This document shows, in pieces, positions 1,025 through 18,404 of a stretch of 21,851 nucleotides of DNA. A program made the position numbers and the translations under genes. Location: the IMG/VR virus record IMGVR_UViG_2547132277_000002; one strand, given 5' to 3'. The DNA is from a virus. Taxonomy: Duplodnaviria > Heunggongvirae > Uroviricota > Caudoviricetes. The notes beneath the pieces are model-generated. The model had not been told where the DNA came from. It saw nothing but the letters and a program-made list of their open reading frames with translations, and did no database searches. Every line of letters begins with the position of its first letter. The stretch's first letter is position 1.

Positions 1025-1125
1025 GAGTGTTCCCTTTGTGGTGTAGGAACCTTAAGGAAACAACATGTTGGGTGGAGCGGACAATCCAAATGGTGAATTA
1101 CTGTCTTATATCATTGGCGCTGACA
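1..1125 (-). mobile_element. IS21-family insertion sequence, left-end portion (element continues past window start; istB expected off-window)
   Basis: istA frame runs off the window edge; ~100 bp terminal region 1025-1125 lies upstream of istA; lysozyme homology of the adjacent gene stops abruptly near 1125. Exact IS end not determinable by eye. Confidence 0.65.
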
Positions 1126-1560
1126 ATCTTTTATCCACCAGCGAATCGCCTCGCATGCACCCTTACGATCACCGGCATTCAGCCGCTTATAAAACGTCGA
1201 CGGGAAACACTTACCGGGGCCAATGTTATAGGGACAAAATGACGCTATACCCGCTTTCTGGGGTTCGCTCAATGGCACTTTGATGTTTTTCTCCACCCAT
1301 GCCAGCGCCTTATCACGCTCAATGGCGTTAACCTGGTCGCATTCTTCCTTCGACAGCTTCATTCCCGGTATGACGGGCTTACCATCCACCATTGTGGCAC
1401 CACGACAGATGGTCCATATACCGGAACCATCGCGGTATGCCGTAGTGTGGTTACCCTCTTTTTCATCCAGAAACTGGTCAAGTATTTGAGGAGCAGACGC
1501 GCCTGCAGCAATCAGCGCCAGAACAGCAGCTGACAGGCCGTATTTGATTTTTGCGCTCAT
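1111..1560 (-). pseudogene. Phage SAR-type endolysin (T4-lysozyme-like, GH24), 3-prime end truncated by the IS21-family insertion
   Basis: 149-aa ORF with N-terminal signal-anchor-release stretch YGLSAAVLALIAAGASAP and catalytic E-x8-D-x5-T spacing (E in KEG, D in RDG, T in IWT). Homology to lambdoid prophage lysozymes (RrrD-like, ~165 aa, recalled) ends after ...EAIRWWIKD; the last codons CQRQ-stop read into IS sequence. Confidence 0.7.
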
Positions 1561-1615
1561 GGATATTTATCAGGATGCTACCAATGAAAGATACTGGAAA
1601 GCCAACTGCAAAAAG

Positions 1616-1930
1616 CTAACAACCCGTAATCGAGTTATCAGAACTGTTAATTTTTATGGTATACCGCGCCTCTGAACAGGGGCGCGTTTCTGGCAACAGC
1701 TCGTCCCCTTCACATAACCCGGCAGCAACATCCAGGAAGACCTGTCTGATGCTCCTTCTGGCTGCTGCCTCATAAAACTCCAGCGCTGCACCTTCAACAC
1801 GGTCCAGCGAGATGTCCAGGTCAAAAATTTCACCGTCAAAGCGTTTTTTGTCCCGTAACGCTAAAGTTACCGTAACTTTATTCTCAAAATTGCGGATCCC
1901 TTTCACAATCAGTTCATAGTTTTGAGTCAT
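1616..1930 (-). CDS. Small phage protein between holin and lysozyme (YdfR-like, DUF1327-like by recollection)
   Basis: 104-aa ORF in the conserved holin / small ORF / lysozyme arrangement of Qin-type lysis cassettes; no recognisable catalytic motif. Confidence 0.5.
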   Translation of the reverse strand: MTQNYELIVKGIRNFENKVTVTLALRDKKRFDGEIFDLDISLDRVEGAALEFYEAAARRSIRQVFLDVAAGLCEGDELLPETRPCSEARYTIKINSSDNSITGC

Positions 1931-1934
1931 TGAA

Positions 1935-2150
1935 TTACTCTCCCCGTGCAGCCTTACGCTTGTCTTCTCTGATTTTGAAGTACAGATTTGTCAGATAAGT
2001 CAGGAAGCCCAGAACCAGACTCCCCAGTACACCAATCGCAGCCCACTGTGACGGACTGACCTGATCAAGCCACTGTAAAAACCAGTAGCCAGCACTGCCT
2101 GCGGAGGTGCCATAGGCAATGCCCGTTGAAATTTTGTCCATGGATTTCAT
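1935..2150 (-). CDS. Holin, lambdoid S-like class II (EssD family)
   Basis: 71-aa ORF with two hydrophobic helices ([19 protein letters not shown]; [23 protein letters not shown]) and a charged C-terminus [13 protein letters not shown]; near-identical to DLP12 EssD as recalled. Confidence 0.8.
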
Positions 2151-2207
2151 AGCCTCACCTCCGCAAATAACGGATGGCGTAGTTTTACACTGAGAAATGA
2201 AAGGGAT

Positions 2208-2236
2208 TTGAAAAGAAAAGCCCGCAAAAGCGGGCG
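2208..2236 (-). terminator. Rho-independent terminator between tRNA array and holin (candidate tR-prime, the target of Q antitermination)
   Basis: Plus-strand GCCCGC-AAAA-GCGGGC hairpin at 2220-2235; on the minus strand it is followed by TTTTCTTTTC. Confidence 0.5.
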
Positions 2237-2310
2237 AAACAATATATACAGTAAGGAAAGCACTCTATCCAACAAACCACCCACAGTTAATCGGAATAAA
2301 AGCAGAGTGC

Positions 2311-2383
2311 TTATGAATGATCGCCTGCCCGAAGGTTAGTATTTCTGCACAGCAATTTTGCAAAAAAAGGCGATCATTCATAA
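2311..2383. repeat. Perfect 15-bp inverted repeat (TTATGAATGATCGCC / GGCGATCATTCATAA) with 43-nt spacer
   Basis: Arms at 2311-2325 and 2369-2383 are exact reverse complements; located between tRNA-Gly and the putative tR-prime. Confidence 0.6.
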
Positions 2384-2442
2384 CTTAAACGTCCTTCAGT
2401 CACTCCGGGATTTCCCATCATCGCAGACTGAAAGACTCTGAC

Positions 2443-2517
<75 letters not shown>

Positions 2518-2520
2518 ATA

Positions 2521-2596
<76 letters not shown>

Positions 2597-2598
2597 AC

Positions 2599-2675
2599 TG
2601 GACCGCCACCGGGGACTCGAACCTCGCACACTCAACTTAAAGAGTTGACGCTCTTTCCTGATGAGCTAGTGGCGG
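2599..2675 (-). tRNA. tRNA of uncertain identity (manual fold gives anticodon UUU, Lys-like, with atypical C at position 33)
   Basis: 77 nt, CCA encoded; acceptor CCGCCAC/GTGGCGG (C1-G72), D-arm GCTC-ATCAGGAAA-GAGC, anticodon stem TCAAC/GTTGA, loop UCUUUAA, T-loop TTCGAGT. Needs tRNAscan-SE. Confidence 0.5.
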
Positions 2676-2676
2676 T

Positions 2677-2752
2677 TGGTGGCCCTTGCTGGATTTGAAC
2701 CAGCGACCTGGCGATTATGAGTCGCTCGCTCTCACCACTGAGCTAAAGGGCC
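2677..2752 (-). tRNA. tRNA with CAU anticodon, ileX/ileZ-like (tRNA-Ile2; elongator Met not excluded)
   Basis: 76 nt, CCA encoded; GGCCCTTTAGCTCAGTGGTGAGAGC...CTCATAA...GGTTCAAATCC...AAGGGCCACCA closely resembles E. coli tRNA-Ile2 as recalled; anticodon loop CUCAUAA. Confidence 0.7.
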
Positions 2753-2761
2753 GGGCGCAGG

Positions 2762-2790
2762 ATAATAACGTTACGAAATCAATGTTGCAA
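2762..2790 (-). promoter_or_regulatory. Sigma70-like promoter driving the tRNA array / late operon (candidate PR-prime)
   Basis: Minus-strand -35 TTGCAA (plus 2785-2790), 17-bp spacer, -10 TATTAT (plus 2762-2767); predicted start just upstream of the first tRNA (5-prime end at 2752). Confidence 0.45.
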
Positions 2791-2871
2791 GCATTCAAAA
2801 ATCACTTGGTTAAAAATCACCCTTATCTCCTCCACCAGCGCATTCACCATGTCTATCCGAGATAAGTGACA

Positions 2872-2894
2872 CAAAAAAACCCGCTTGATGCGGG
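2872..2894 (-). terminator. Hairpin terminator separating the cargo operon from the tRNA/late promoter
   Basis: CCCGC-TTGAT-GCGGG stem-loop at 2880-2894 preceded by an A7 run on plus (T7 after the stem on minus); only TTT follows on the plus strand. Confidence 0.5.
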
Positions 2895-2942
2895 TTTAAG
2901 TTGTGTGGCGAAGCGACCACTCTTAACAGATTAAGATAGTTT

Positions 2943-2972
2943 TTGCGTACGCGTTAGTGATTTTTTCATAAT
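2943..2972 (+). promoter_or_regulatory. Candidate sigma70 promoter for the plus-strand three-gene cargo operon
   Basis: -35 TTGCGT at 2943-2948, 18-bp spacer, -10 CATAAT at 2967-2972, ~45 bp upstream of the probable start codon. Confidence 0.4.
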
Positions 2973-2984
2973 TATCTGTATCCT

Positions 2985-3896
2985 GTGGCTATTTCTCTTG
3001 CGCAAAGGATGCTTTTGATGACGCAGCAACTCGAAAACATGCCAATAACAGAAATCGAAATTGCCTACGGTGGAGAGGCATACGCAGATAATCAGATCGA
3101 CGCGAAAACATTAGGCGAAGCCTTAACCTCTCTTAGTGCCCTGATTGAACACGCCGAAAAAATAATTAATGGCGAAACAGCAGAGCCGAAAGTCAACATC
3201 AAGGCAACAAAAGAAGGTTCATTTACTTTGCTTGTTGCTGTGATGGGGAGCATAAAAACTATTAACGCCCTTGGCCTCGTTGCAGGTGGTGGAGTTGCCG
3301 CAGGTGGCGTACTCGGGATAATCGAATGGCTCAAAGGGCGTAAAATCAGCTCCATTGTCGTCGATGAACAAAAAGATACAGCAGAAATCGAAGTGGATGG
3401 TGAGAAGGTTAAATGCAGTAACGACATTCAAAAATTAATAACCAGTCCAATCATCCGAAAAGAACTGGATAAATTAATCTATAAACCCCTGCAGACTGAA
3501 AAACCATCCACGTTCTCAGTTTCACAGCAGAAGCATAAGGTAGTCAGGGTGACGCAAGCTGAAGCAGTAAGTTTTAAAACTGCAAAATCCACCTTTGTCG
3601 AGAAAACGCACGTAACGACACGCCAAGCTAATGTACATTTTGCTAATGTTCGATTCAAGCAAGGCAAAAGCTGGGATATCATCCTGCCAAATGGCGAAGA
3701 AGTTAGCGCATCTATGAAAGATGAGGCTTTTCTTGAACGGGTTGAACACAACCAAGCAGCATTCTGTAAGGGTGATCTTTTTGTTGTAGAACTGACAGAA
3801 ACAACAAAAGAAACAAATGGCGCGCTGTCTAAACCACGCTATAGTATTACTAAGGTTATACGCCACAGAGCGGCGGCAGATAGGAAACTACTTTAA
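2985..3896 (+). CDS. Cargo gene A: unknown protein with a central Gly-rich hydrophobic segment (probable start ATG 3018, 292 aa)
   Basis: ORF-track start 2985 is GTG; ATG at 3018 has AAGGA 8 nt upstream. Hydrophobic stretch FTLLVAVMGSIKTINALGLVAGGGVAAGGVLGIIEWL; no motif I can assign. Opposite strand to every flanking phage gene. Confidence 0.6.
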   Translation: MAISLAQRMLLMTQQLENMPITEIEIAYGGEAYADNQIDAKTLGEALTSLSALIEHAEKIINGETAEPKVNIKATKEGSFTLLVAVMGSIKTINALGLVAGGGVAAGGVLGIIEWLKGRKISSIVVDEQKDTAEIEVDGEKVKCSNDIQKLITSPIIRKELDKLIYKPLQTEKPSTFSVSQQKHKVVRVTQAEAVSFKTAKSTFVEKTHVTTRQANVHFANVRFKQGKSWDIILPNGEEVSASMKDEAFLERVEHNQAAFCKGDLFVVELTETTKETNGALSKPRYSITKVIRHRAAADRKLL

Positions 3897-3899
3897 ATC

Positions 3900-4145
3900 A
3901 TGTCAATCCTAAGCATTATGCTTTACATCACTGTATTCATGGCTGTCGCAGCGACGGTCAGATATGCTGTGCTTAGGTTCTTGGTTTGGGTAAAGCCGAA
4001 TGCGTATATTGAACTAACCTACACCGATCCTGAAGGCAGAACCGCTAAAAGGAAAGTCAGCGTTAGAAACGAAAATGACGCAGAAGAGTTGGCGCTACTG
4101 CTACGCGAACTCAAAACTCGCAACGAAGCAAGTGCAGGAAGGTGA
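3900..4145 (+). CDS. Cargo gene B: small protein with N-terminal transmembrane helix and charged C-terminus
   Basis: 81 aa; ILSIMLYITVFMAVAATVRYAVLRFLVWV hydrophobic; starts 4 nt after gene A stop. Confidence 0.55.
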   Translation: MSILSIMLYITVFMAVAATVRYAVLRFLVWVKPNAYIELTYTDPEGRTAKRKVSVRNENDAEELALLLRELKTRNEASAGR

Positions 4146-4532
4146 ATGGCGAACACTAAATCCTACCTGGCAATGCAGGCATGGTTTACCACCCTTATCA
4201 CTGCGGGATTGAATTTCCTTTTTGACTGGCTTCCTCAATTAGCCTTCTTCAAATCATTGGCGCCTGGAGCTGCTGTCGGCTTATCTCATGTGGTAATTCT
4301 TCTTATCGCTTACATAGGTTTGCCTACGCTTAATGATGTAAGAATGAAAAGGGAAATAAAAACGGCCAGAAAATTCATCACGAACTGCCTGGCCAACCCT
4401 AACCTAACACCAGACCAAATTGCGCACTACAACCAATGTCTTATCGATCTAGACAATAAGCTATTAAAAAACATAAATATTCGTATTGATGCTTTATCTG
4501 ACGCCGAATCGAAAGCTCAAGCAAACGAGTAG
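4146..4532 (+). CDS. Cargo gene C: predicted membrane protein (two hydrophobic helices) with a soluble C-terminal ~70 aa
   Basis: 128 aa; TGA-ATG junction with gene B; SD GGAAGGTGA upstream; helices WFTTLITAGLNFLFDWL and AAVGLSHVVILLIAYIGL. Confidence 0.6.
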   Translation: MANTKSYLAMQAWFTTLITAGLNFLFDWLPQLAFFKSLAPGAAVGLSHVVILLIAYIGLPTLNDVRMKREIKTARKFITNCLANPNLTPDQIAHYNQCLIDLDNKLLKNINIRIDALSDAESKAQANE

Positions 4533-4545
4533 TAACAGTCATAAC

Positions 4546-4902
4546 TTATGATAGAATCAAGCATATACATCCATCAATAAAGCCTAATGCAGTTTGCAGC
4601 TCCTTTCTTATAGTTCCATCTGAGCACCTGCGTTTCTTCGCGATTGAGCGTAGAGAAACACCAATAACAAAGTGAGCTATGAGCAGCTCATATTCCTCTG
4701 GTTTATACTTTCGCAACCGAGCCACACAACCGTCTATCATGATGCCTTCATCATCATCACACTGGAGACGTGACTTTTTGCCATGTGGCAAAAGCCTCTT
4801 GAAGCCCGCTGCTATCGGTTGCCAATCGACACCGCTATTTTCTGCTGCAGCCCATGCCCCCCAGCGATCTAAAACCTCATACATATCACGCCCCATTACC
4901 AT
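4546..4902 (-). CDS. Late-gene antiterminator Q (phage 21 / DLP12 QuuD-like family)
   Basis: 118 aa; motifs VLDRWGAWAA, IAAGFK, Cys-rich segments; conserved position downstream of rusA; resembles QuuD-type Q as recalled. Confidence 0.7.
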   Translation of the reverse strand: MVMGRDMYEVLDRWGAWAAAENSGVDWQPIAAGFKRLLPHGKKSRLQCDDDEGIMIDGCVARLRKYKPEEYELLIAHFVIGVSLRSIAKKRRCSDGTIRKELQTALGFIDGCICLILS

Positions 4903-5257
4903 CGCCTCTGATTTCGCAAATCTTCACGCCCAGCCGCCCACCAGGAACGAGCTGACCGCGCACAATATTGATTTCATCAAACTGCTCGTCGTCTATAAGT
5001 AGTCCGGCATGCGTCAGCGCATCCAGTGGTGCCTTCAGGATATTGTCCAGGTCGCGGCGGCGCTTATCCGGTGGCTCTGCAATCACCTTTATCGCCAGCC
5101 TTCCGGACAGGCTTAATTTCAGCCGCTGCTGGCGAACAATAAGCGCCACAGCCCGGCGATAACGCTTTCCCTCCTCCGAGATAAAATATGTGCTGCCACG
5201 GCGTCGCCAGTAAGTGTTCACCGTCGGCGGGTAAGGTAAAACCAAATCTATGAGCAT
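4886..5257 (-). CDS. rusA: Holliday-junction resolvase RusA
   Basis: 123 aa; PYPPTVNTYW... and RRRDLDN motif typical of RusA; nin-region position upstream of Q. Confidence 0.8.
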   Translation of the reverse strand: MLIDLVLPYPPTVNTYWRRRGSTYFISEEGKRYRRAVALIVRQQRLKLSLSGRLAIKVIAEPPDKRRRDLDNILKAPLDALTHAGLLIDDEQFDEINIVRGQLVPGGRLGVKICEIRGDGNGA

Positions 5258-5269
5258 CAGTCACCTCTT

Positions 5270-6319
5270 TTACCCAAGCACGCCAGTTGCAAAGGCGTGA
5301 TCAAGAAAACGAAAAATTAAATCAACCTGAGAACCATGCTTTTCTTCGAACGCCAGCGGATCCGCATGAAGCTCGTTGTGATGCTCCCGACACAGCGGTA
5401 GCGTGAAAATATCGTGAGATTTTGTCCCCATTCCGCCCTGACCATGACCAATCAGGTGATGGGGATCGTCGGCTGGCTTACCACAACACGCACACGGCTG
5501 TGTCTTCACCCAGCGAGTGTATTTCTCGTTAACCCAGCGGCGACGTTTAGGTCGTTTCATGAAAGATTCCGGAGACTCAGGATCAACGGCAATGCTGACC
5601 ACCGTCTTTTCCTGTGGTGGGTTCTGTTGCTGGTGGGCGTGAGGCAGCGGCGCAAGATTTTTTGTGCGCTGTTTCAGTATGCTGGTGGCGGTCTGCTCTC
5701 CCGGTACGATGTCGCTTTCACGGTACATGGAGCGGATTTTTTCCACACGCAACCCCAGCGAACGACGTAATACCGCTTCCGGTAGCGCGTCCGCCACCTG
5801 ATTGCGGACCGCCCACCAGGATAATTCAGCCAGAGATAATTCACGCTCCTGCGTACCGCTTATTGCGTGACCGATGACGTCAATCATCCATGCTGACAGG
5901 TTTTGATGAGCAAGTTGCTCGAGTGATTCGGATGTCTGGTCACGCAGCTGGTTGTCGCAGTGCCAGCACAACACCATTGCGCCGGTACCATAACGGTGAA
6001 TGACGGTTTCGCTGTGATGATAATCGCCGTGTGGCCACTGGCAGGATTTAATATGGCGCAACAGCCAGTCAGACAATGCACCAGCACCACCAGCAGCACG
6101 AATCACCCGCTCATCGCTGAAAAATGGCAGTAATGATTTATCCTCCGCCAGCGGCTGGCGAACGGCAGGAACGACCCCGGACGGCAGACCGCGCATGCTT
6201 TTTGGCTCCGGTTCAACCAGCACTCTGCCGTTATGGAATACCTGCATGGATTCACGACCTGGCTTAACGATAACCACCCCAAGTTCCGGCACCAGAACAG
6301 GTCGAAGTAATACCCGCAC
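5270..6319 (-). CDS. DUF968-family nin-region protein (YdfU-like)
   Basis: 349 aa; C-terminal Cys/His-rich block QPCACCGKPADDPHHLIGHGQGGMGTKSHD...CREHHNELH recalled as DUF968 of Qin-type prophages. Confidence 0.65.
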   Translation of the reverse strand: MRVLLRPVLVPELGVVIVKPGRESMQVFHNGRVLVEPEPKSMRGLPSGVVPAVRQPLAEDKSLLPFFSDERVIRAAGGAGALSDWLLRHIKSCQWPHGDYHHSETVIHRYGTGAMVLCWHCDNQLRDQTSESLEQLAHQNLSAWMIDVIGHAISGTQERELSLAELSWWAVRNQVADALPEAVLRRSLGLRVEKIRSMYRESDIVPGEQTATSILKQRTKNLAPLPHAHQQQNPPQEKTVVSIAVDPESPESFMKRPKRRRWVNEKYTRWVKTQPCACCGKPADDPHHLIGHGQGGMGTKSHDIFTLPLCREHHNELHADPLAFEEKHGSQVDLIFRFLDHAFATGVLG

Positions 6320-6320
6320 G

Positions 6321-6593
6321 TTACCTCCAGATGCGTTGCTGGAATGTGCGGGACGGACGCGGTGGGCGTTCGGAATAAGGGAGCCTGACAGAAATTATCC
6401 AGTGTCGGAAGTCAGGGCCGAGGTCTTTCTGAAAGTCGTACCCACGCCTGCGGTAGTTCTGAATCAGCCATTCGGCCTGTTCTTCAGTGCATGGGGCATG
6501 CTGGTACCAGTCATATTTGAATGTATGAGAACGCCGCCCGTGCCAGCTGGCAAGGTCGGTATCAGAATTGTGATGTTTGGTATTGTGCGCCAT
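6321..6593 (-). CDS. Hypothetical small phage protein (nin region)
   Basis: 90-aa ORF ending 1 nt before the DUF968 gene start (coupled); no recognised motif. Confidence 0.4.
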   Translation of the reverse strand: MAHNTKHHNSDTDLASWHGRRSHTFKYDWYQHAPCTEEQAEWLIQNYRRRGYDFQKDLGPDFRHWIISVRLPYSERPPRPSRTFQQRIWR

Positions 6594-6660
6594 CGGTTTT
6601 CTCTGCTGGCGCAGCAGGTGCCAGTTGTTCAGGCTGGCCTGTAGATTGTAAACCAGAATA

Positions 6661-6690
6661 CGTAAAACAAAAAACCCGCCGAAGCGGGTT
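6661..6690 (-). terminator. Rho-independent terminator downstream of the HTH-peptidase gene
   Basis: AACCCGC-CGAA-GCGGGTT stem at 6673-6690; on the minus strand followed by TTTTTTGTTTT. Confidence 0.6.
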
Positions 6691-6694
6691 ATGC

Positions 6695-7816
6695 CTAGTG
6701 AATTTTGCCTCTAAGAGTTCGGTAAGATTGTAGTGAAACAACATCACCACTTCCTGGCAGTTCATGAACCGCAGGAAGATCATCTCCTACTAACTCATAA
6801 AAAATGTCCACTTCTATATCCATTTCATCAGCTATACGCTGTGGGTCGTATCCTAACTCTTCAAATAAAAACGATAAAGCCCGACGGAATAACTCAGGAC
6901 GCTCATGAGGGATTAGATAATCTTCTTTTTCATCAATAGCTTCCCCTTTCCGTTTCAACCCCATAAATGCAGTTCTGTACTGCTCATCAGTCAAAAGTCC
7001 TAATTGATGAGCCCTGTAAACAATGGCAGCCTTACTTACTTTCCATGTCAACTTAAATTGGCTTAGTCCCTGCCAATTTATCCTCCCCCCCACAGGTCTT
7101 GGAAAATATTTCGCCATCGACGTTCTGGGAAGCAACAGAGCAGAGGCAAAACGGTTTGCCTGGGATTCAGTTAATCTATCCCCAGTAGAAATTCCTTCAT
7201 GAAGAATCAAATGGGCAACCTCATGAGCAATATCAAAGCGTTGCCTACAAGGTGAATTTTTAGCTGTATTTCGAACAATAAAAGGCCTTCGTAGAGGAAC
7301 AGACAGTGCATCTACTTCATCCGAAACGGAGTCAAATGAAGTAACAAACGCCCCAAGTTTCTCGGCAAGGCGAGTCATATTTTCAATTGGGCCAAAGCCT
7401 AAGCCCCACTCAATACGACATTTTTCTGCCGCTCGCTCGATATCTTCTTGTGTATGGACACGAAATTCAGGAAATCGAACAGGTGACAAATTAAGGTTAT
7501 CTTCAAATACATCAATAAAACGACGATAAAACTCAGCCTTAGCGAGTGTTGATAGCTTCGTTGACATCCTTGTCGAGGCGCGTTTACGAAAATGTACAAT
7601 CTCTTCATTAACAGGAGAATGTTCCTGCCCTTCGAAAAAGGCGGGCTTCACGCGCAAAACCTCGGCTAATTTATTTATAAGCTCTGGGGATGGAGTAGCT
7701 GAACCAGACTCCAGTCGCTGTACATACTGGCGTGTTTTTTCAACCTTCTCAGCAACCTGCTCCAGAGATAGCTCGTGATACAGACGAGCAAGTCTTAAAT
7801 TAGTACCGTTAAACAC
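6695..7816 (-). CDS. Fused XRE-family HTH regulator / ImmA-IrrE (COG2856) zinc metallopeptidase
   Basis: 373 aa; N-terminal HTH LRLARLYHELSLEQVAEKVEKTRQYVQRLESG; HEXXH zinc motif in DIAHEVAHLILHEG; GTG start 11 nt after the upstream gene stop. Confidence 0.8.
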   Translation of the reverse strand: MFNGTNLRLARLYHELSLEQVAEKVEKTRQYVQRLESGSATPSPELINKLAEVLRVKPAFFEGQEHSPVNEEIVHFRKRASTRMSTKLSTLAKAEFYRRFIDVFEDNLNLSPVRFPEFRVHTQEDIERAAEKCRIEWGLGFGPIENMTRLAEKLGAFVTSFDSVSDEVDALSVPLRRPFIVRNTAKNSPCRQRFDIAHEVAHLILHEGISTGDRLTESQANRFASALLLPRTSMAKYFPRPVGGRINWQGLSQFKLTWKVSKAAIVYRAHQLGLLTDEQYRTAFMGLKRKGEAIDEKEDYLIPHERPELFRRALSFLFEELGYDPQRIADEMDIEVDIFYELVGDDLPAVHELPGSGDVVSLQSYRTLRGKIH

Positions 7817-7826
7817 ATTTCACCCA

Positions 7827-8420
7827 CTATTTGCTATTTTGTTTCTTTTCCTTCTCAGTCTTAGACGCACTGATAGGTTCTAGTTCGATAGGTACCGGTG
7901 CTGGAGGTACATCATCGACAGAGTTCAGCATAACAACACGGTCCGCACCATATGTCCAAGTTGACACGATCTCACCAAACACGTTATAGCCATTAAAAAT
8001 GACTCTACCACCCTCGCCTTCAAATTCAGGCTTTTCAACCACAAAGCGATGCATAGTTGGAGTAGTCTCCTCTGACTCAAAGAGTCGATCAGCATCATTT
8101 CTTTTGAAAAAACCGCGTTTCTTGGGGTTATCTGCGTCATCAGTAAAGAAACGAATAGGGACATTCCCAATTGAAAACGTAAGATCCATGCCAGGATTAA
8201 GTAGTCTTAACCAGTCATATGTCTTTCGTACGCACATTTGTAGCAACGCCTGCCGCTGACGCCCAAATGTACAACCACCACGAGTGTAATTATCATCATA
8301 GGGCGATGACAATAACTCATGAGTAATATCCTGTATCCTGAGCAACTCCTCAGCTATAATGGTTAAACGCACCTCTGTTAACTCAGGAAAGAACTCCCAA
8401 GGGAATGGATGGTTCTGCAT
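7827..8420 (-). CDS. Unknown protein, first gene of the two-gene cassette (197 aa from ATG 8420; ORF track extends to 8468)
   Basis: ATG at 8420 has GGAG 8 nt upstream; the longer start would overlap promoter-like TTGACA boxes. No recognisable domain. Confidence 0.55.
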   Translation of the reverse strand: MQNHPFPWEFFPELTEVRLTIIAEELLRIQDITHELLSSPYDDNYTRGGCTFGRQRQALLQMCVRKTYDWLRLLNPGMDLTFSIGNVPIRFFTDDADNPKKRGFFKRNDADRLFESEETTPTMHRFVVEKPEFEGEGGRVIFNGYNVFGEIVSTWTYGADRVVMLNSVDDVPPAPVPIELEPISASKTEKEKKQNSK

Positions 8421-8469
8421 AGACACTTCTCCGCCTAATCCGTGCAAAAAACGACTTTTGTCAACCAAG

Positions 8470-8498
8470 ATATTGGTGCATATTCATAATTTTGTCAA
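8470..8498 (-). promoter_or_regulatory. Possible promoter for the two-gene cassette (weak -10)
   Basis: Minus-strand TTGACA (plus 8493-8498) directly after the terminator T-run, 17-bp spacer, -10 CAATAT (3 of 6); a second TTGACA at plus 8459-8464. Confidence 0.3.
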
Positions 8499-8499
8499 C

Positions 8500-8523
8500 A
8501 AAAAAAAACCCCGCCGAAGCGGG
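8500..8523 (-). terminator. Rho-independent terminator upstream of the two-gene cassette (downstream of the ParA-like gene)
   Basis: CCCGC-CGAA-GCGGG stem at 8510-8523; on the minus strand followed by T9 (plus A-run 8500-8508). Hairpin nearly identical to the one at 6673-6690. Confidence 0.65.
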
Positions 8524-8870
8524 TTAAGTGCGGGTGCGTTGAGGATGCCTGACACATCAGAGGTGGCGAGGGATTTCTCCCTCGCCTGGTCTCTTACTCC
8601 TCAGGTTCGTAAGCTGTGAAGACAGCGACCTCCGTCTGGCCGGTTCGGATTCGTACCTCGCAGAGGTCTTTCCTCGTTATCAGTACCGCAACAATTTCGT
8701 ATTCATGATTCATTTCATCTAAAACAGTTCATAAACCTAAATAAATTCAAAAAATCACAACACAAATAAATATAAATTATCTCATCCTGAAGAACGATAG
8801 GATTATTTAGAATTAATAACAATTAATGTAACAATAATTATCAATCCAGATTATTCAAATAAAATGTCAT

Positions 8871-9917
8871 TTACCATATGGAGTTGTGAATGAACTTTAA
8901 TTCATTTTTTATTTTGTTAACAGATAAATTCACGGATGTCCTAACTCTATTCACAGTCATTGCATCTCCTGGATTTAACAACTCTAATGGTTTAGACTTA
9001 GCACTTGACATTCTGCCACTACCCAGAAAATCATCAAGAATCACAATGTGATTATTAGGATCATCTGTTGTAAAATTACTAATATTTTGTCGAATTACCT
9101 CTCTTACAGCTTCGATGTACATTTTTGTCTGTTGATTTGGTTTATTCCTTGCTCCTGCCACTGTTGACCATCCGCAATGGGTAATAACCACCATCTGAAT
9201 TTTTGGTGTATGGCCATCAGACGGCATTATCTTTCTAAATTCTGATGTTGGTTTAGTCAGAGTATCAATAAGTAATCTTAATGAATTAATCGATTGCTGA
9301 TCTGTCCTCACTGGAACTATTAAAGCATCTGTTGCATGCCAAGATAAATGCGTCGCTCCAGAGAAAAAAGGTGATGTATCAATTAACGCTTTTGTAGTAC
9401 CAGTTTCAACCATTTCTCTGGCTATTTCTTTCTTCAGAGAAAAAAGAATTGTATCAATAACAACCTGCTGAGTAGCCCCAGAAATTGTTCTGGCTTGAGC
9501 CAGAGCATTCGCCATTTGCGTAGGTAGAAGATAAAGTTGACTATCAGATTGAATAAAATAGTTATTCTTGCCCGCAAACCAAGCATTAGTTGATGATACT
9601 AGCTTTGCAGCACGCGTTGCAAATCCAAGCCCTGGAACAAAATAAGGCATTAAGAGGTCATTTGCAGTTGTGCTAGACGAAGATGCATAATTATTGTCAA
9701 AAAAATATGATAAATTTCCTTGCGGGCACGTATCCACGATTAATGCGTTATCCGCCAAATATGACAGATTAAAAGTTAAAGATGTCTTACCAATGCCTCC
9801 CCGTAAATTACATACTGTATATTTATCATATTTCGGCAAATTAAGACTTCTTACATTACCGTCAGCAACTTCGAATTGACGCTCTATCAGAGCATTAACA
9901 TTTGATTCACTAGTCAT
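8871..9917 (-). CDS. ParA/MinD-family (SIMIBI) P-loop ATPase-like protein, standalone, AT-rich
   Basis: 348 aa; deviant Walker A NLRGGIGKTS (Arg at the signature-Lys position), IVDTCPQGN (ParA DxDPQ-type motif), ALIDTSP Walker-B-like; sampled lines ~34% GC versus ~50-55% in the phage backbone. Confidence 0.65.
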   Translation of the reverse strand: MTSESNVNALIERQFEVADGNVRSLNLPKYDKYTVCNLRGGIGKTSLTFNLSYLADNALIVDTCPQGNLSYFFDNNYASSSSTTANDLLMPYFVPGLGFATRAAKLVSSTNAWFAGKNNYFIQSDSQLYLLPTQMANALAQARTISGATQQVVIDTILFSLKKEIAREMVETGTTKALIDTSPFFSGATHLSWHATDALIVPVRTDQQSINSLRLLIDTLTKPTSEFRKIMPSDGHTPKIQMVVITHCGWSTVAGARNKPNQQTKMYIEAVREVIRQNISNFTTDDPNNHIVILDDFLGSGRMSSAKSKPLELLNPGDAMTVNRVRTSVNLSVNKIKNELKFIHNSIW

Positions 9918-9947
9918 ATCGCCACCATTAGTTTTACACTTTTATTG

Positions 9948-9976
9948 ATGATATGGAAAACTAACCTAGTTGTCAA
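9948..9976 (-). promoter_or_regulatory. Near-consensus sigma70 promoter for the ParA-like gene
   Basis: Minus-strand -35 TTGACA (plus 9971-9976), exact 17-bp spacer, -10 TATCAT (plus 9948-9953), ~30 bp upstream of the ATG at 9917. Confidence 0.55.
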
Positions 9977-10401
9977 CAATGGATTAAAAAACAAACACAC
10001 AAGCGTTTATCAAAAGCACCTTGATTGGTGATACTACCGTGTCTTTCAGCCAAACAGTTCAGTATGTAAAGCGAATCCAACATCAATTAAGAACGTTTTC
10101 AGCGCTCCCCCAGTTGTCTAGATGTCAAACTTCATGCGCTCTCCTGTCGAAATAAACGTACTGATTAATCATGCCCAAGGACATTTCGCGTTTTACAGCG
10201 ATATCACGGCGGGGAACTCCACACTGATGAAGCTTCCGCACTAGCTCAATATCGCTTTGCGGATGTTTTTTTGATTGGTTATAACCCCCCCTCTTAACAT
10301 CCTATTGATACCCAGTTCCTGCGCTTTCGCTCTGACAGCATAACTAGAACGATCAATCAACCCTCCTATGCTTTCGGCCGTCAACGCGTCTACACAATTG
10401 C

Positions 10402-10857
10402 CTAAGCGCCATGATTTCCCTCATGCACAACCTGTTCACCGAATGTCTCTCGAAAACCATTCTGGTAAAATGCCAGTACACGCTGCATAGCTTCGCTCTT
10501 CCGGCACTCGCGACAGATTATGTTCTGACGCCTGTCGTAGCGACGTATTTCTCCGTCAGGTAATGACCAGATAAGGTCCGGATCAACCGCAGATGGTTTC
10601 TTCAGCTTTGCCCTTGAGAGCTTTTTACGGGCATTTTGCCAGTCCTTACGCGCCTGTTCAGACGGGAATAACCCGTAACCAGAGTTGTATACATCGCCAC
10701 TGGCAACCAGCTCTCTGGCCAGAACGCTCATCAGATATCTTGTTGCCCCAGTTTTAGTTTCCAGTTGTCGTAACGTCTCGCGCCCACTCTGGCGTACGAG
10801 TTCAACAACCTGCCCTTTAATTTTTTCCCGCTCTTCTTGTGTAAAAACTTTTGCCAC
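10402..10857 (-). CDS. Hypothetical phage protein downstream of the replication initiator
   Basis: 151 aa; GTG start with strong SD AGGAGGG 4 nt upstream; no assignable motif. Confidence 0.5.
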   Translation of the reverse strand: MAKVFTQEEREKIKGQVVELVRQSGRETLRQLETKTGATRYLMSVLARELVASGDVYNSGYGLFPSEQARKDWQNARKKLSRAKLKKPSAVDPDLIWSLPDGEIRRYDRRQNIICRECRKSEAMQRVLAFYQNGFRETFGEQVVHEGNHGA

Positions 10858-10897
10858 AAGCCCTCCTGAAAATTACCTCATGACCAGAAATTAACAC

Positions 10898-11968
10898 TTA
10901 CCCCCTGAAGCCCGGCGGAATTTCGTTATCCGGTTCAGAAATATGATTCACACAACGCTGGTTGTTCGTGCCGCTTACCGGGAGCAACCAGGGGTTCTCA
11001 AAATTCCGGTCCGGTCCAAAAAACGTCGTCGCTCGCTGAACAAATTCCGTTCCCGTTTTCCCGGTAGCCGCCAAGTATCTTGCGTAACGCCTCACGCCAT
11101 CCAGCATGGCCTCTGGTGGCACCCCCTCGCGTAATCTGGCCTTCCAGGCACTGAAAGCGGATTTCTTCGGGTTTGCCCCGGCACGCAACGGGTATTCCCG
11201 CCAGACCTGTTCGAACACATCAGGATAATCCACTCGTCCCACAGGCTGCCCGGTGTTTTCCGGGACTACCCGATCGGCTTCCCGCTGAATGGCGGAATCG
11301 GCTTCAGGCTGCTGAAGTTGGTGTGATTGCTCCTGCCTTGCGGTCATCACCTGCTGCACAGCGCCCGAATCGGCTTTCAGCGCATACGCTGAATCGGCTT
11401 CCGGTGTCGTGCCTGCGGGCTGGCCAGGAGTGACGGTCTGAACATCCCCTGCCTGGTTCGTGGCGTTTTTTACGCCATGGACCATAGTGTTTTGATCTTC
11501 TTGATCTGTATCTTTATCTGTATCTTTATCTGTCGTGACTCGTCGTGACATGTGCGTGACATTTCGTGACTCGCCGTGACAATCGCCATTTTGTTCCCGC
11601 TTTCTTTCCCTCTCTCGCTGCGCCCTCTTGCGCTCTGCCGGAGATTTTGCGGTTTGCGAAATATTGCCGTTGTCCTCTTTCAGCACCTGGCGTTTTTCCC
11701 ATCCAGTGATTAAATCACCATCAAGTACCCGCCCCTGCATCGTCTGCAAAATTGAATCAATTACCTCTTCTGTCACGTCGAGCGCACTTGCCAAATCTTC
11801 TGTCGTGACATCAATGTGACCTCGCGTGACATTTCGTGACGCGCTCACCAGGAGGTGGATATACACTGCCATCACTGTTGCAATTGGCTGCCCTGACACC
11901 CTGGCAATTGTTCGCCACTTAGGGTCATTTGGCATGTCATGCCATAATCTGAGCCAGGCGTTAGCCAT
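10898..11968 (-). CDS. Replication initiation protein (lambda O-like organiser N-terminus, DnaT-like C-terminus) with internal iterons
   Basis: Probable start ATG 11968 (SD GAGG 5 nt upstream; ORF-track GTG at 11974); acidic DKDTDKDTD linker; C-terminal YPLRAGANPKKSAFSAWKARL recalled as DnaT-like; position after the cII-like gene. Confidence 0.65.
   Translation of the reverse strand: MANAWLRLWHDMPNDPKWRTIARVSGQPIATVMAVYIHLLVSASRNVTRGHIDVTTEDLASALDVTEEVIDSILQTMQGRVLDGDLITGWEKRQVLKEDNGNISQTAKSPAERKRAQRERERKREQNGDCHGESRNVTHMSRRVTTDKDTDKDTDQEDQNTMVHGVKNATNQAGDVQTVTPGQPAGTTPEADSAYALKADSGAVQQVMTARQEQSHQLQQPEADSAIQREADRVVPENTGQPVGRVDYPDVFEQVWREYPLRAGANPKKSAFSAWKARLREGVPPEAMLDGVRRYARYLAATGKTGTEFVQRATTFFGPDRNFENPWLLPVSGTNNQRCVNHISEPDNEIPPGFRG
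11509..11532. repeat. 12-bp tandem direct repeat TATCTTTATCTG x2 (encodes DKDT repeats on minus strand)
   Basis: Exact duplication at 11509-11520 and 11521-11532, immediately adjacent to the iteron array. Confidence 0.7.
11534..11580. repeat. Iteron array: five CGTGAC repeats at 10-11 bp spacing (candidate replication origin)
   Basis: CGTGAC at 11534, 11544, 11555, 11565, 11575 (plus strand), inside the replication gene as in lambda ori. Confidence 0.55.
11773..11840. repeat. Second cluster of CGTGAC / GTCACG motifs
   Basis: GTCACG at 11773; CGTGAC at 11804, 11825, 11835; degenerate TGTGAC at 11815; 10-11 bp spacing. Confidence 0.4.
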
Positions 11969-12039
11969 ACTCACCTCTTTTGATACCGAATCTTTTTACT
12001 CACAAATTGCCGGAAGTGATCCGGTATGAATATTGCGAG

Positions 12040-12465
12040 TCAATGCACAGCCACAATATTTCCTGCAGGGCCACCACGATTCATCTGGTTGAAACCAGCG
12101 ATCGCCACTGCGACAAAATCATCAGCGTCTCTCACCAGTCGTTCCCGCGTCTCCACTAGTTCCCGAAAATACGCTGAGCTATGACTGCGCATTCGGGCCA
12201 CCAGCAGAGGTGGCATTGCTTTTTCGATAGCTGGTAACAACGCCTGAATTTTTTTAACCGCATCAGGGGTGTCTTTCTCCACCCAGCGGAAAATTTTCTG
12301 AGTATTGCGAGCCAGGGCTTCCGGATGGCTGTCGTCATACAGTTCCGGGAACGTCATTCCCAGCTCGAAATACGCTTTGGTAATTTTCGCAGCCGGTACT
12401 TTTTCGCCGTCCGGATGCGCCCAGGCATTCATCGCCATGCGGATGTGTTCATGCTTGATTTTCAT
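12040..12465 (-). CDS. YdaT-like (cII-type) regulator of Rac-like prophages
   Basis: 141 aa beginning MKIKHEHI and ending VH, as recalled for Rac YdaT; start overlaps the stop of the upstream Cro-like gene (ATGA). Confidence 0.65.
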   Translation of the reverse strand: MKIKHEHIRMAMNAWAHPDGEKVPAAKITKAYFELGMTFPELYDDSHPEALARNTQKIFRWVEKDTPDAVKKIQALLPAIEKAMPPLLVARMRSHSSAYFRELVETRERLVRDADDFVAVAIAGFNQMNRGGPAGNIVAVH

Positions 12466-12716
12466 GAATCAACTCCCATCAGCTTTTTCGTAGTAGTTTT
12501 ATTCCTGCCAATAGTTAAAATTGCATCGGCAGAAAATAATCCGTTTGATGCAAGAGCGATTTTTTCAGCGTAATTTGTTTCGCCGGTATATTCTGTGCGA
12601 GGCAATTTTCCGTTATCCATCCATTTATAGATTGCTCTTTGGCTGACACCACAAACGTCGGCCACAACAGCAACGCGAACAGTTTTGATTACATCTTCAA
12701 GTGTTTTCTGGTTCAT
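12462..12716 (-). CDS. Cro-like HTH regulator (YdaS family)
   Basis: Probable start ATG 12716 (SD GAGGGTG 4 nt upstream), 84 aa; HTH VADVCGVSQRAIYKWMDNGKLP; divergent from the repressor gene. ORF-track start 12788 lies in the operator region. Confidence 0.65.
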   Translation of the reverse strand: MNQKTLEDVIKTVRVAVVADVCGVSQRAIYKWMDNGKLPRTEYTGETNYAEKIALASNGLFSADAILTIGRNKTTTKKLMGVDS

Positions 12717-12795
12717 ATCACCCTCACAATGTGAACTTTGAGTACATGCCATAACAGAACTGACAGTACATTCAAGAGCGAATATCATTGAACTT
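12717..12795. promoter_or_regulatory. Divergent promoter/operator region (OR-like) between Cro-like and repressor genes
   Basis: Two AGTACAT motifs (12741-12747, 12765-12771) and inverted repeat TGAAC-TTATG-GTTCA (12789-12803) spanning the repressor start codon. Confidence 0.5.
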
Positions 12796-13215
12796 ATGGT
12801 TCATGAAGATAAAGCGCGTAAAGAGTTCGCCAGTAGGCTTGCGCTAGCCTGTGAAAACGCTGGTTATGAACAACATGGAAGGCAGGCAGAAATTGCCCGT
12901 CGAATGAAATTAACACCAAAAGCGGTTAGCAAATGGTTTAATGGCGAAACAATTCCTCGCCGGGAGAAATTAAGGGAATTAGCAACACTAATAGGAACAA
13001 CACCAACCTATCTTTTGGGAGAGGATACAGAAGAAAGTGGACAGGTACGTTTCTATCAGGAGTTAAATCCAAGACAAAAAATCATCATTGACCTTCTGGA
13101 CGAGCTCCCTGACAGTGAGACAGATGAACTTTTAAAAACTCTTGAAGAGAAAAAACAGAAGTACAATGCAATTTACGAAGAGTTAGCACGAAAGAAAAAA
13201 CAAAAAGCCTCTTAA
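12796..13215 (+). CDS. Prophage repressor, HTH-only (RacR/CI-like; no LexA-type autopeptidase domain)
   Basis: 139 aa; HTH GRQAEIARRMKLTPKAVSKWFNGE; same strand as the early-left genes and int; divergent from the Cro-like gene. Confidence 0.65.
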   Translation: MVHEDKARKEFASRLALACENAGYEQHGRQAEIARRMKLTPKAVSKWFNGETIPRREKLRELATLIGTTPTYLLGEDTEESGQVRFYQELNPRQKIIIDLLDELPDSETDELLKTLEEKKQKYNAIYEELARKKKQKAS

Positions 13216-13290
13216 ACCAGCATAAATCCGGTAGCGCCTTCCTCCGGGTTTGTGCTTCACTTTATCCCATCTCATTTTTTTACACACAAA

Positions 13291-13331
13291 ATGTACTAAA
13301 AGTACTTTACAACAATGAACGCAAAGTACAT
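13291..13331. promoter_or_regulatory. OL-like operator cluster downstream of the repressor gene
   Basis: Palindrome GTACTAAAAGTAC (13293-13305) and further AGTACAT-type motifs at 13291-13297 (inverted), 13301-13307 (variant), 13325-13331. Confidence 0.4.
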
Positions 13332-13512
13332 TATATGCCTACCACCCACCCCGCCCCACAGAATGCAGGGCAATACTTCGAGTTACCAGGCAGTGGTCAG
13401 GGGTTAAGTAGCCAGCCCGAGGCGTAAGAACATGACGGCAGGGTTCAACTTTAATAACTATGCAGCAGGTTTTTGTTCCGCTACCCCGGCGTTAAGGGGA
13501 AATGAGGTCAGC

Positions 13513-13668
13513 ATGGATACTATCGATCTTGGCAACAGCGAATCTCTGGTATGTGGCGTGTTCCCCAACCAGGACGGTACGTTCACCGCGATGACGTATA
13601 CCAAAAGCAAAACGTTTAAAACCGAAAATGGTGCCCGTCGCTGGCTGGAAAGAAACTCAGGTGAGTGA
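13513..13668 (+). CDS. Small early-left protein, YdaF-like (DUF1391-like by recollection)
   Basis: ATG 13513 with GAGG 6 nt upstream; 51 aa MDTIDLGNSESLVCGVFPNQDGTF...; the ORF-track N-terminal extension lacks an RBS. Confidence 0.5.
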   Translation: MDTIDLGNSESLVCGVFPNQDGTFTAMTYTKSKTFKTENGARRWLERNSGE

Positions 13669-13669
13669 T

Positions 13670-13798
13670 ATGGATTTCGACACAATCATGGAAAAGGCTT
13701 ACGAAGAATACTTCGAAGGCCTTGCCGAAGGCGAAGAAGCTCTCAGCTTCAGCGAATTTAAACGGGCGCTTTCCAGCTCGGCAAAATCTAACGGCTGA
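13670..13798 (+). CDS. Small acidic early-left protein (YdaG-like), 42 aa
   Basis: ATG at 13670 two nt after the previous stop; MDFDTIMEKAYEEYFEGLAEGEEALSFSEFKRALSSSAKSNG; below the ORF-track length cutoff. Confidence 0.45.
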   Translation: MDFDTIMEKAYEEYFEGLAEGEEALSFSEFKRALSSSAKSNG

Positions 13799-13827
13799 TA
13801 AGCGAAACAGCACCGCGAGGAATCAGT

Positions 13828-14046
13828 ATGCAGAAACGAGAACCCGTCATCATCGCGCCAGACTATACCGATGATGAGCTTTATGAGTGGATGCGCCAGA
13901 AAATTAAGGCCGCGCAGGACCTGAAATGGGCCAATGAAGCCAAGGCTAAGCAGGCTGAAAATCTGTCCGCTCTGGAGCAGGATATCACCAATTTGGAAAA
14001 AGCAGCGGCATTAAGCATTGCCAGAATGATTACATACCCACGTTAA
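13828..14046 (+). CDS. Hypothetical early-left protein
   Basis: 72 aa; SD AGGAA 6 nt upstream of ATG; coiled-coil-like C-terminus. Confidence 0.5.
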   Translation: MQKREPVIIAPDYTDDELYEWMRQKIKAAQDLKWANEAKAKQAENLSALEQDITNLEKAAALSIARMITYPR

Positions 14047-14068
14047 TAGCTAACCAACGAGGCTAATA

Positions 14069-18153: not shown

Positions 18154-18404
18154 TGTTCAACCGTCGCCAGTTGTCGTTGGTATTCTGCAACTGGCGCGTT
18201 CCGGAGTGATAGCCATGAGCGAACAATACCTGATAACGCTCGATGAGTGGAAACCAAAACGGTTCAGTCTCCCAATAACAAACACTACCCTGGTGAAATA
18301 CGGAAAACTAGGATACATCGTTCCAAGACCACAAAAAATTCGTGGGCGTTGGCTGATAGATCGCCGAGCAGTATTTGTTGGGCCTGGTGGGTAGTGACTC
18401 CAAC

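Follow-up and report, generated by a model that had tools for sequence, protein, structure and literature searches.

A prophage-borne cassette of the RosmerTA toxin–antitoxin family, probably equivalent to the E. coli E101 module

Described RosmerTA systems and the place of the cassette among them

The family name RosmerTA and its description as a defence system come from Millman et al. (2022), who verified defence for the system of E. coli OLC-716, of which a ΔrmrA mutant was unobtainable. Defence has also been verified for the RosmerTA system of phage Kita. The prophage of E. coli E101 carries the toxin–antitoxin module E101_02645/E101_02644 (Rousset et al., bioRxiv 10.1101/2020.05.25.114553; Nat Microbiol 2021), which makes clpP essential in a toxin-dependent manner (Rousset et al., bioRxiv 10.1101/2020.05.25.114553). 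Knock-down of clpP kills only with the wild-type E101 toxin, the T46S substitution in the toxin suppresses this effect, and clpP essentiality moves to K-12 along with the module. Three of the four clpP-suppressor clones of E101 survived through the excision of the whole prophage (bioRxiv 10.1101/2020.05.25.114553). In classical type II toxin–antitoxin systems Lon or Clp degrades the antitoxin, whereas the opposite was reported for the E101 module, in which the knock-down of clpP leads to toxin-dependent lethality.

A comparable pair is known from Vibrio mimicus. The vmi480 gene is lethal alone and is rescued by vmi470, which cannot be deleted (Luo et al. 2015, PMC4671572). The Vibrio proteins share 33% and 42% identity with the E101 pair (Rousset et al., bioRxiv 10.1101/2020.05.25.114553). 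The architecture is the same as in the cassette studied here, with a toxin without a known domain and an antidote combining a helix-turn-helix (HTH) and a Zn-peptidase, but the Vibrio pair is distant in sequence and is located on the genomic island MGIVmi1 and not on a lambdoid prophage. The S. pneumoniae pair Spr1630/Spr1629 (RipAB) was reportedly described by Piotrowski in 2009. RipAB is a Rosmer-family toxin–antitoxin system whose antitoxin combines an HTH with an ImmA-like peptidase, as does RmrA; it is chromosomal and competence-linked, and its toxin, RipA, has the DnaN sliding clamp as its target. Control of the RipAB toxin also requires ClpX and follows the same inverted protease logic (Maziero et al. 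2025 preprint). RosmerTA systems from Pectobacteriaceae and S. pneumoniae show a recurring dependence on ClpX or ClpP.

The window, that is the whole stretch of 21,851 nucleotides analysed here, contains a gene for a 197-aa protein followed by a gene for a 373-aa protein, as stated in the initial annotation; both genes are on the minus strand. PADLOC profiles match both proteins over their full length and assign the pair to the RosmerTA system; the genes are designated rmrT and rmrA (Table 1). The arrangement by which PADLOC and DefenseFinder recognise a RosmerTA pair was found, with the gene matching the RmrT profile lying upstream of rmrA in the same orientation. The predicted gene order is retained, while the spacer was measured as 10 nt instead of 11 nt. 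The RmrA protein of the window is identical to WP_000481765.1, which is the E101 antitoxin E101_02644. The E101 toxin (WP_001179380.1), compared by accession and cluster, falls into the small E. coli cluster that also contains the RmrT of the window (WP_001179382.1). Both modules are carried by prophages, possibly not the same one and possibly in different host strains. It is very probable that the cassette is a RosmerTA-family toxin–antitoxin module equivalent to that of E101.

The cassette is an ordinary, already catalogued element and not a novel one. Its initial treatment as uncharacterised had to be abandoned, and as a find it is of little weight, since the family is included in PADLOC and exactly this antitoxin has been characterised genetically together with a near-identical toxin. 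New here are the moron anatomy, the conservation of the pair, the dual operators, the invariant peptidase site and an RmrT protein without a significant fold match.

The OLC-716 system likewise consists of a toxin gene followed by the gene for an antitoxin of about 370 aa with an XRE HTH and a Zn-peptidase. The two RmrA proteins share 31% identity over 311 aligned residues, including the HExxH...E..A.RFASA.L.P pattern, whereas the OLC-716 toxin (239 aa) and RmrT of the window do not align and are unrelated. On these grounds the cassette was rejected as a copy of the tested OLC-716 system. Defence has been shown for the systems of OLC-716 and phage Kita, whose toxins are both unrelated to the RmrT of the window, and a literature search returned no mechanistic or phage-defence report for the RmrT subfamily of the window. 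An M78 metallopeptidase is coupled to an XRE HTH also in ImmA/ImmR, IrrE/DdrO and CapP/CapH. In the cassette, however, a single fusion protein carries both HTH and protease, and the partner gene encodes a toxin, whereas the known modules are linked to an integrase, repair or CBASS regulon. Because of this fusion, the cassette contains no separate cognate repressor gene of the kind found in ImmA/ImmR-type modules.

The products of rmrT and rmrA

Table 1. Coordinates of the cassette features in the window
Feature	Position	Strand	Remarks
rmrT, putative toxin gene	7827..8420	-	197-aa ORF; RefSeq WP_001179382.1; PHROG 5786
rmrA, antitoxin and regulator gene	6695..7816	-	373 aa; XRE HTH, M78 (ImmA/IrrE) Zn-peptidase and C-terminal region
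RmrA XRE helix-turn-helix	7634..7798	-	residues 7-61; Pfam HTH_3, E 1.5e-12
RmrA Peptidase_M78	7010..7366	-	residues 151-269; Pfam, E 8e-17
Putative sigma-70 promoter of the rmrTA operon	8470..8498	-	-35 TTGACA 8498-8493; 17-nt spacer; -10 CAATAT 8475-8470
Operator-like site O1	8477..8498	-	TTGACAAAATTATGAATATGCA; overlaps -35 and spacer
Operator-like site O2	8443..8464	-	TTGACAAAAGTCGTTTTTTGCA; over transcript start region; repeat D6
Intrinsic terminator of rmrTA	6663..6690	-	stem-loop 6690-6673 and T-run; from scan
Terminator of the upstream hok transcript	8501..8523	-	stem-loop 8523-8510 and T9; from scan
Left copy of 27-nt direct repeat	6665..6691		repeat D1
Right copy of 27-nt direct repeat	8500..8526		repeat D1; flanks the insertion

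The RmrT protein matches the PADLOC profile PDLC03929 (E 5e-92) with residues 1-197 on 198 profile positions. The rmrT gene starts with ATG, preceded 8 nt upstream by GGAG. Orthologues in the family alignment begin at the same methionine, and therefore a 213-aa version of the ORF with a TTG start is considered spurious; the Shine–Dalgarno sequence likewise fits the ATG. The remote-homology and structure check suggested in the initial annotation yielded the PADLOC match, but no significant fold match and nothing in Pfam, NCBIfam or the PDB sequence profile. A PD-(D/E)xK nuclease fold was considered as a candidate. The protein is predicted to be soluble and acidic (pI 5.1) with no transmembrane segment. 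Its conserved motif D42-D-N-Y-T46-R47 includes T46, the position of the published E101 suppressor. Since RmrT is soluble and carries a conserved acidic/basic cluster, enzymatic action or stoichiometric inhibition is more likely for it than toxicity at the membrane.

A valine at position 17 characterises the window allele of RmrT and is seen in it alone among the 46 aligned family members. Glutamate or aspartate is found at this position in 35 of the 46, with serine, alanine and asparagine also seen, and all other compared full-length members of the RmrT 90% cluster have glutamate or aspartate. The compared E. coli members of the cluster differ from the window protein by one to three residues. 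Judging from these alignments, the V17 allele could be attenuated. It is present on 145 contigs.

The rmrA gene starts with GTG, and the same ORF is annotated in RefSeq. Its product matches the PADLOC profile PDLC03943 (E 4e-201) with residues 1-368 on a profile of 370 positions, and 13 further RmrA profiles match as well. The NCBIfam model of the spr1629-family repressor/antitoxin gave an E-value of 4e-51 with a score under the model's cutoff, and matches to the capP (E 3e-17) and capH (E 5e-10) profiles were also obtained. The XRE-HTH and M78/ImmA-IrrE peptidase domains ascribed to the protein from its letters were both recovered with Pfam, the Peptidase_M78 match reaching 61.6 bits where the cutoff is 22. 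The HEVAHLILHE sequence comprises residues 198-207, and the HEVAH codons lie at 7225-7211. The motif E217-x2-A-N-x-F is a putative third zinc ligand motif, so that the RmrA sequence contains the HEXXH and the downstream glutamate that define ImmA/IrrE proteins (Peptidase_M78, COG2856). Residues H198, E199, H202, H206, E217, A220, N221, F223 and P230 are invariant across 28-31 RmrA orthologues. The linker motif H75-F76-R77 is also invariant.

Transcription signals and insertion site

Of 15 orthologous upstream regions inspected, most keep the -35 element and a CAnnAT -10 element of the putative rmrTA promoter. A consensus promoter scan made no call at this site because the -10 element is weak, matching in only three of six positions. 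The operator-like site O2 is located 34 nt downstream of O1. The TTGACA-N12-TGCA pattern gives 49 matches within the 190 nt that precede rmrT, in 29 of the 32 loci, versus no match elsewhere in these loci (about 487 kb). Both conserved operators are probably bound by the N-terminal HTH of RmrA, which would autorepress its operon.

Strong minus-strand terminators had been predicted on both sides of the cassette. The scan detected both. The one at 6690-6673 has a 7-bp stem, dG of -13.8 kcal/mol and a z of -2.9. The hairpin at 8523-8510 has five G-C pairs and a U9 run (dG -10.3 kcal/mol), and its z is only -0.8. It belongs to the upstream hok transcript; in phage Evi, too, hok is followed by this hairpin. 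This hok terminator shields the cassette from read-through. Rfam had no match inside the cassette.

The copies of the 27-nt direct repeat are 93% identical and spaced by 1835 nt, and the upstream hok terminator is part of one of them. In phage Evi the site is empty, with a single copy of the repeat. The low GC content noticed at the outset was corroborated, with a value for the cassette of 43.0% instead of about 40%, versus 52.9% in the left flank. The cassette thus shows the features of a lambdoid-phage moron: its own promoter and terminator, deviating GC content, insertion among conserved phage genes and absence from relatives. From these sequence features we infer a moron of 1835 bp inserted at the hokD terminator of a defective Qin-like lambdoid prophage. 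The cassette occupies the nin-equivalent part of this prophage, in agreement with the nin-region position proposed earlier; the genes there run in the order replication gene, Ren-like, ParA-like, the hok remnant, the cassette, rem-like, DUF968, RusA and Q. The hok gene beside the cassette is truncated. The tail and portal genes of the prophage are also truncated, and its excisionase gene (xis) is interrupted by IS1. An HTH-only, DicA-like repressor of 139 aa is encoded at 12796-13215, about 5 kb from the cassette.

Distribution and role of the cassette

The cassette was found in 23 of 5426 genomes, while 4559 genomes match the 2-kb query, mostly via the flanks alone. Of 32 loci, each from a different species of Gamma- or Betaproteobacteria, 31 have kept the rmrT–rmrA pair, with a full-length RmrA homologue encoded 14-124 nt downstream of rmrT on the same strand. 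One homologous pair lies between gpA and the portal gene of a P2-like prophage, which is a defence hotspot, and another in an integrase island beside HNH, methyltransferase and helicase genes. The P2-like prophages and non-lambdoid islands with the pair have unrelated repressors. No third component was found ahead of rmrT; the ORFs located there in Serratia and Aeromonas are mutually unrelated. Phage genomes match in the flanks only, apart from one distant tblastn match on a Salmonella contig. Four copies of the cassette with about 70% identity are present on plasmids.

The rmrTA genes are proposed to form an operon with its own promoter and terminator, in which RmrT would act as a growth-arresting toxin and RmrA as its antidote, as published work has shown for the same RmrA paired with a near-identical RmrT, and for homologues. 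A toxin controlled by the HTH-peptidase was one of the two readings offered in the initial annotation, and the RmrT and RmrA profile matches, the E101 genetics and the Vibrio pair speak for it. Neutralisation would also require the host ClpP, with ClpX needed in related RosmerTA systems, and ClpP depletion would unleash RmrT despite the presence of RmrA. The protease-controlled partner would then be the toxin and not the antitoxin. The Zn-peptidase site of RmrA and ClpXP may jointly hold free RmrT low, RmrA holding or clipping RmrT before its removal by ClpXP. If a cue derived from a phage blocked or overloaded RmrA or ClpXP, it would free RmrT, which would stop the infected cell (abortive infection) and protect the lysogen population. 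We consider a role of the cassette in phage defence fairly probable. The specific two-protease control of RmrT is a tentative proposal, and the ClpP effect could be indirect. Still more speculative is the idea of RmrT as a cytoplasmic enzyme toxin with a new fold, perhaps degenerate and nuclease-like, and of an RmrA–ClpXP relay that senses phage interference with proteolysis.

The other initial reading regarded RmrA as an ImmA-like anti-repressor that cleaves the DicA-like 139-aa repressor, with the 197-aa gene as an accessory. The prophage does encode this HTH-only repressor, the M78 peptidase of RmrA is intact by sequence and of the ImmA/IrrE/CapP type, and M78-family proteases are known from the literature to cleave XRE repressors. 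The reading is nevertheless rejected as very improbable, because the cassette is an insertion in its own right, about 5 kb from the immunity region, and is absent from related phages, because the immunity region is present at a coverage of at least 80% in 1046 complete E. coli genomes and the cassette in 23, because P2-like prophages and islands that are not of phage type carry the pair as well, and because an HTH is built into RmrA itself and conserved operators lie at its own promoter. The E101 genetics moreover give RmrA the role of an antidote, and the prophage that would be induced is defective.

Two further explanations keep the toxin–antitoxin assignment but dispute a present role in defence. 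Stabilisation of the prophage by addiction (post-segregational killing) is unlikely to be the main function of the cassette, which would in that case take over from the decayed hok and have no part in phage defence. Most of the E101 clpP-suppressor clones lost the whole prophage yet lived, and loss of the locus is therefore not lethal; in addition, the dependence on the protease runs opposite to that of a labile-antitoxin module, relatives are located in recognised defence hotspots, and protection against phages is known for two RosmerTA systems. The addiction reading draws on the toxin–antidote pair with an undeletable antidote, on the truncated hok gene next to it and on the fact that the reported defence tests concern other RosmerTA toxin types. 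The window copy might also be a decaying or attenuated remnant without present function, with an E17V toxin in a defective prophage. Consistent with this are the uniqueness of V17 among the aligned family and compared cluster members and the damage to the tail, portal and xis genes. Both ORFs are intact, however, the promoter, Shine–Dalgarno sequence, operators and all invariant residues are preserved, the allele is found on 145 contigs and position 17 is not invariant, which makes decay improbable, even more so than addiction.

For a functional toxin–antitoxin module equivalent to that of E101, the dual operator, the H75-F76-R77 linker and the toxin positions T46 and V17 provide handles for work on RosmerTA. 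The general questions concern the action of this toxin type, the substrate of the peptidase and the reason for the Clp requirement. In carrier strains clpP is predicted to be conditionally essential, as is, probably, clpX, which bears on Clp-targeting antibacterials and on essentiality maps obtained by CRISPRi or Tn-seq. The complete genomes with the cassette include ETEC-named strains.

A RosmerTA cassette matching a studied module

The initial annotation had described a unit of two genes, and this unit proved to be real: both open reading frames were found on the minus strand, RefSeq annotates the same coding sequences in E. coli 99-3165 (99.95% identical to window 1123-14302), and Pfam places HTH_3 at residues 7-61 and Peptidase_M78 at residues 151-269 of the 373-aa protein. 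The HEVAHLILHE motif of this protein spans residues 198-207. The two genes are separated by 10 nt. A 213-aa version of the first gene with a TTG start was rejected as spurious, because 45 orthologues share the Met start of the 197-aa form.

Coordinates of the cassette and of neighbouring features in the window
Feature	Position	Strand	Remarks
rmrT ORF, 197 aa	8420-7827	-	ATG start, GGAG 8 nt upstream
rmrA ORF, 373 aa	7816-6695	-	GTG start
Direct repeat, 27 nt, both sides of cassette	6665-6691 and 8500-8526		93% identical, start-to-start 1835 nt
TTGACA-N12-TGCA copies	8498-8477 and 8464-8443	-	sole two matches in window
RmrA H75-F76-R77	7586-7594		HTH-peptidase linker
RmrT codon 17	8370-8372		V
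hok/mok remnant	~8594-8695
Second AT-rich insertion	8700-10400		36.7% GC
ParA-like ATPase gene, 348 aa	8871-9917	-	solitary
Promoter of ParA-like ATPase gene	9976-9948		near-consensus, 11/12 matches
IS1-like element	18390-19159		splits xis (from 18216)
DicF antisense RNA	14987-15038		68.6 bits, adjoins dicB
Four-tRNA block	2446-2752		upstream of lysis genes

The Pfam search gave no match for the 197-aa protein. The PADLOC profile for RmrT, PDLC03929, matches it over positions 1-197 of 198 (E 5e-92), and the RmrA profile PDLC03943 matches the 373-aa protein over positions 1-368 of 370 (E 4e-201); this protein also hits the capP and capH profiles and, more weakly than PDLC03943, 13 further RmrA profiles. 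The cassette is a RosmerTA system of Millman et al. RmrT proteins form a compact single-domain family (~200 aa), which comprises 80 clusters when grouped at 90% identity; at 50%, it counts 427 representatives (E <= 1e-3). Of 32 loci, each from a different species of Gamma- or Betaproteobacteria, 31 carry a full-length RmrA homologue (42-77% identical) on the same strand, 14-124 nt downstream of rmrT. The genes upstream of the pairs are mutually unrelated, and RosmerTA of this subfamily is thus a two-gene system.

The window RmrA is identical to the product annotated as WP_000481765.1. This protein is E101_02644, the antidote of a prophage toxin-antitoxin module (Rousset et al., bioRxiv 10.1101/2020.05.25.114553; Nat Microbiol 2021). 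According to that study, the toxin E101_02645 (WP_001179380.1), which is encoded upstream and has no domains, makes clpP an essential gene of E. coli E101. Of four suppressors of the clpP knock-down, three had lost the prophage by excision and the fourth carried the toxin mutation T46S; repression of the toxin lifted the lethality, and the module made clpP essential in K-12 except with the T46S toxin. The window toxin has a different accession, WP_001179382.1. It has T46, and the E. coli proteins compared with it within its 90% cluster differ from it at 1-3 residues. The cassette is therefore already known: it belongs to a named, profile-catalogued defence family and is essentially the E101 module dissected genetically in 2020-21.

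A 2026 paper explicitly counts the E101 module as RosmerTA and reports that clpX is essential in just the three RosmerTA-bearing Pectobacteriaceae strains. In Vibrio, the homologous vmi480/vmi470 has been shown to be a toxin-antidote pair (Luo et al. 2015), and toxin control in the pneumococcal RipAB, of the Rosmer family, likewise requires ClpX. The toxin and antidote roles, and the need for ClpP or ClpX in neutralisation, are thus established in the literature. Anti-phage activity has been demonstrated for other RosmerTA members. The system verified by Millman et al., from E. coli OLC-716, is another member of the family, with an RmrA that shares 31% identity with the window RmrA and a 239-aa RmrT unrelated to the window protein.

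Regulatory region and protein features

A search of the 32 loci for the 22-nt motif TTGACA-N12-TGCA gave 49 hits, spread over 29 loci and all of them within the 190 nt preceding rmrT; the remaining ~487 kb (both strands) gave none. The copies are usually paired, 34 nt apart. The first window copy provides a -35 hexamer, with CAATAT 17 nt further on; a CAnnAT element is kept in most orthologous upstream regions displayed. The copies are putative operators for the RmrA HTH, and transcription of the cassette would be autonomous and autorepressed through the two sites.

Among 28-31 orthologues, the RmrA residues H198, E199, H202, H206, E217, A220, N221, F223 and P230 are invariant. This conservation argues that the protease is under selection to remain active and is probably catalytic. 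The linker motif H75-F76-R77 is invariant in the same orthologues, across two proteobacterial classes, and may serve for self-cleavage or for docking at the active site. The final ~50 residues are variable.

RmrT is acidic (pI 5.1). A search for a hydrophobic segment found none, in contrast to the membrane-depolarising RmrT of phage Kita. Its invariant residues are D42, Y45, R54, R90, F92, D94, D95, P99, D111, R125, F126 and W155. At position 46, 40 of the 46 family members have T and 5 have S, so that the T46S suppressor is probably hypomorphic and not null. AF2 models the fold with confidence (pLDDT 82, pTM 0.74): two long helices pack against a six-stranded sheet, and the C-terminal tail is disordered. 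A nuclease-like fold should be taken as a lead only.

Codon 17 of the window rmrT encodes V, whereas the other full-length members compared in the 90% cluster have E or D, as do 35/46 family members. The V17 allele is present on 145 contigs and may be an attenuated toxin allele.

Proposed mechanism and alternatives

We propose that protease limitation would act on RmrT rather than on RmrA. RmrA might bind RmrT, clip it or do both, and would together with ClpXP hold it low; a phage cue upsetting RmrA or ClpXP would release RmrT and abort the infection.

The initial annotation had also offered RmrA as an ImmA-like anti-repressor of the prophage. This idea fails because of distribution and context. 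The full cassette is rare: of 5426 complete E. coli genomes, 23 have it, whereas 1046 have the immunity region; a 2-kb query is matched by 4559 E. coli genomes, mostly across the flanks alone. None of 50,697 phage records contains the cassette, and four plasmid copies have about 70% identity. Elsewhere, rmrTA pairs lie in a P2-like prophage of Serratia (L035-L037, 8001-9729) and in an integrase/WYL island of Aeromonas (L038-L040, 8001-9699). The Serratia pair is located between gpA and the portal gene, which we take to be the P2 defence hotspot of Rousset et al. 2022. Genes for an HNH protein, a methyltransferase and a 1732-aa DEAD/UvrD helicase lie alongside the Aeromonas pair. Both settings of the subfamily are defence-island-like.

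Maintenance of the prophage as a pure addiction module is possible but of low probability; the E101 clones with excised prophage survived, which speaks against a classical addiction role. Decay of the window copy is likewise possible, with low probability.

Prophage setting and insertion

A defective, Qin-like lambdoid prophage adjoining potC makes up the window. The minus strand encodes, in order, a cro-like gene, YdaT, a replication initiator, Ren-like/DUF977, a ParA-like ATPase, a hok remnant, the cassette, a rem-like 90-aa protein, DUF968, RusA and Q. From this order the cassette lies in the nin-equivalent region, as had been proposed. Its GC content is 43.0%, against 52.9% in the Q-RusA-DUF968 flank. 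Of the bracketing by strong terminators, the two hairpins were recovered by a scan (downstream, -13.8 kcal/mol, z -2.9; upstream, an all-GC 5-bp stem with U9, -10.3 kcal/mol, z just -0.8), but the upstream one is not specific to the cassette. At the empty site of phage Evi, a single copy of the terminator hairpin links the rem-like flank straight to the hok 3' end. The upstream terminator is therefore that of hok, and the cassette is a promoter-to-terminator unit put in at this terminator, a classic moron.

The second AT-rich insertion substitutes for the 5' part of hok/mok. Its ParA-like ATPase matches PHROG 164 (E 3e-30) and, weakly, the PADLOC PRTase and ShosT profiles. The right-hand part of the window carries DicF, dicB, an exonuclease gene and the integrase. 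The excisionase gene, immediately upstream of the integrase, is split by the IS1-like element, and this copy of the prophage can probably no longer excise; the element is 93.9% identical to IS1B of E. coli 99-3165, which is differently placed there. For the four-tRNA block, the equivalent genes of E. coli 99-3165 carry the RefSeq labels Gly, Thr, Lys and Ile.
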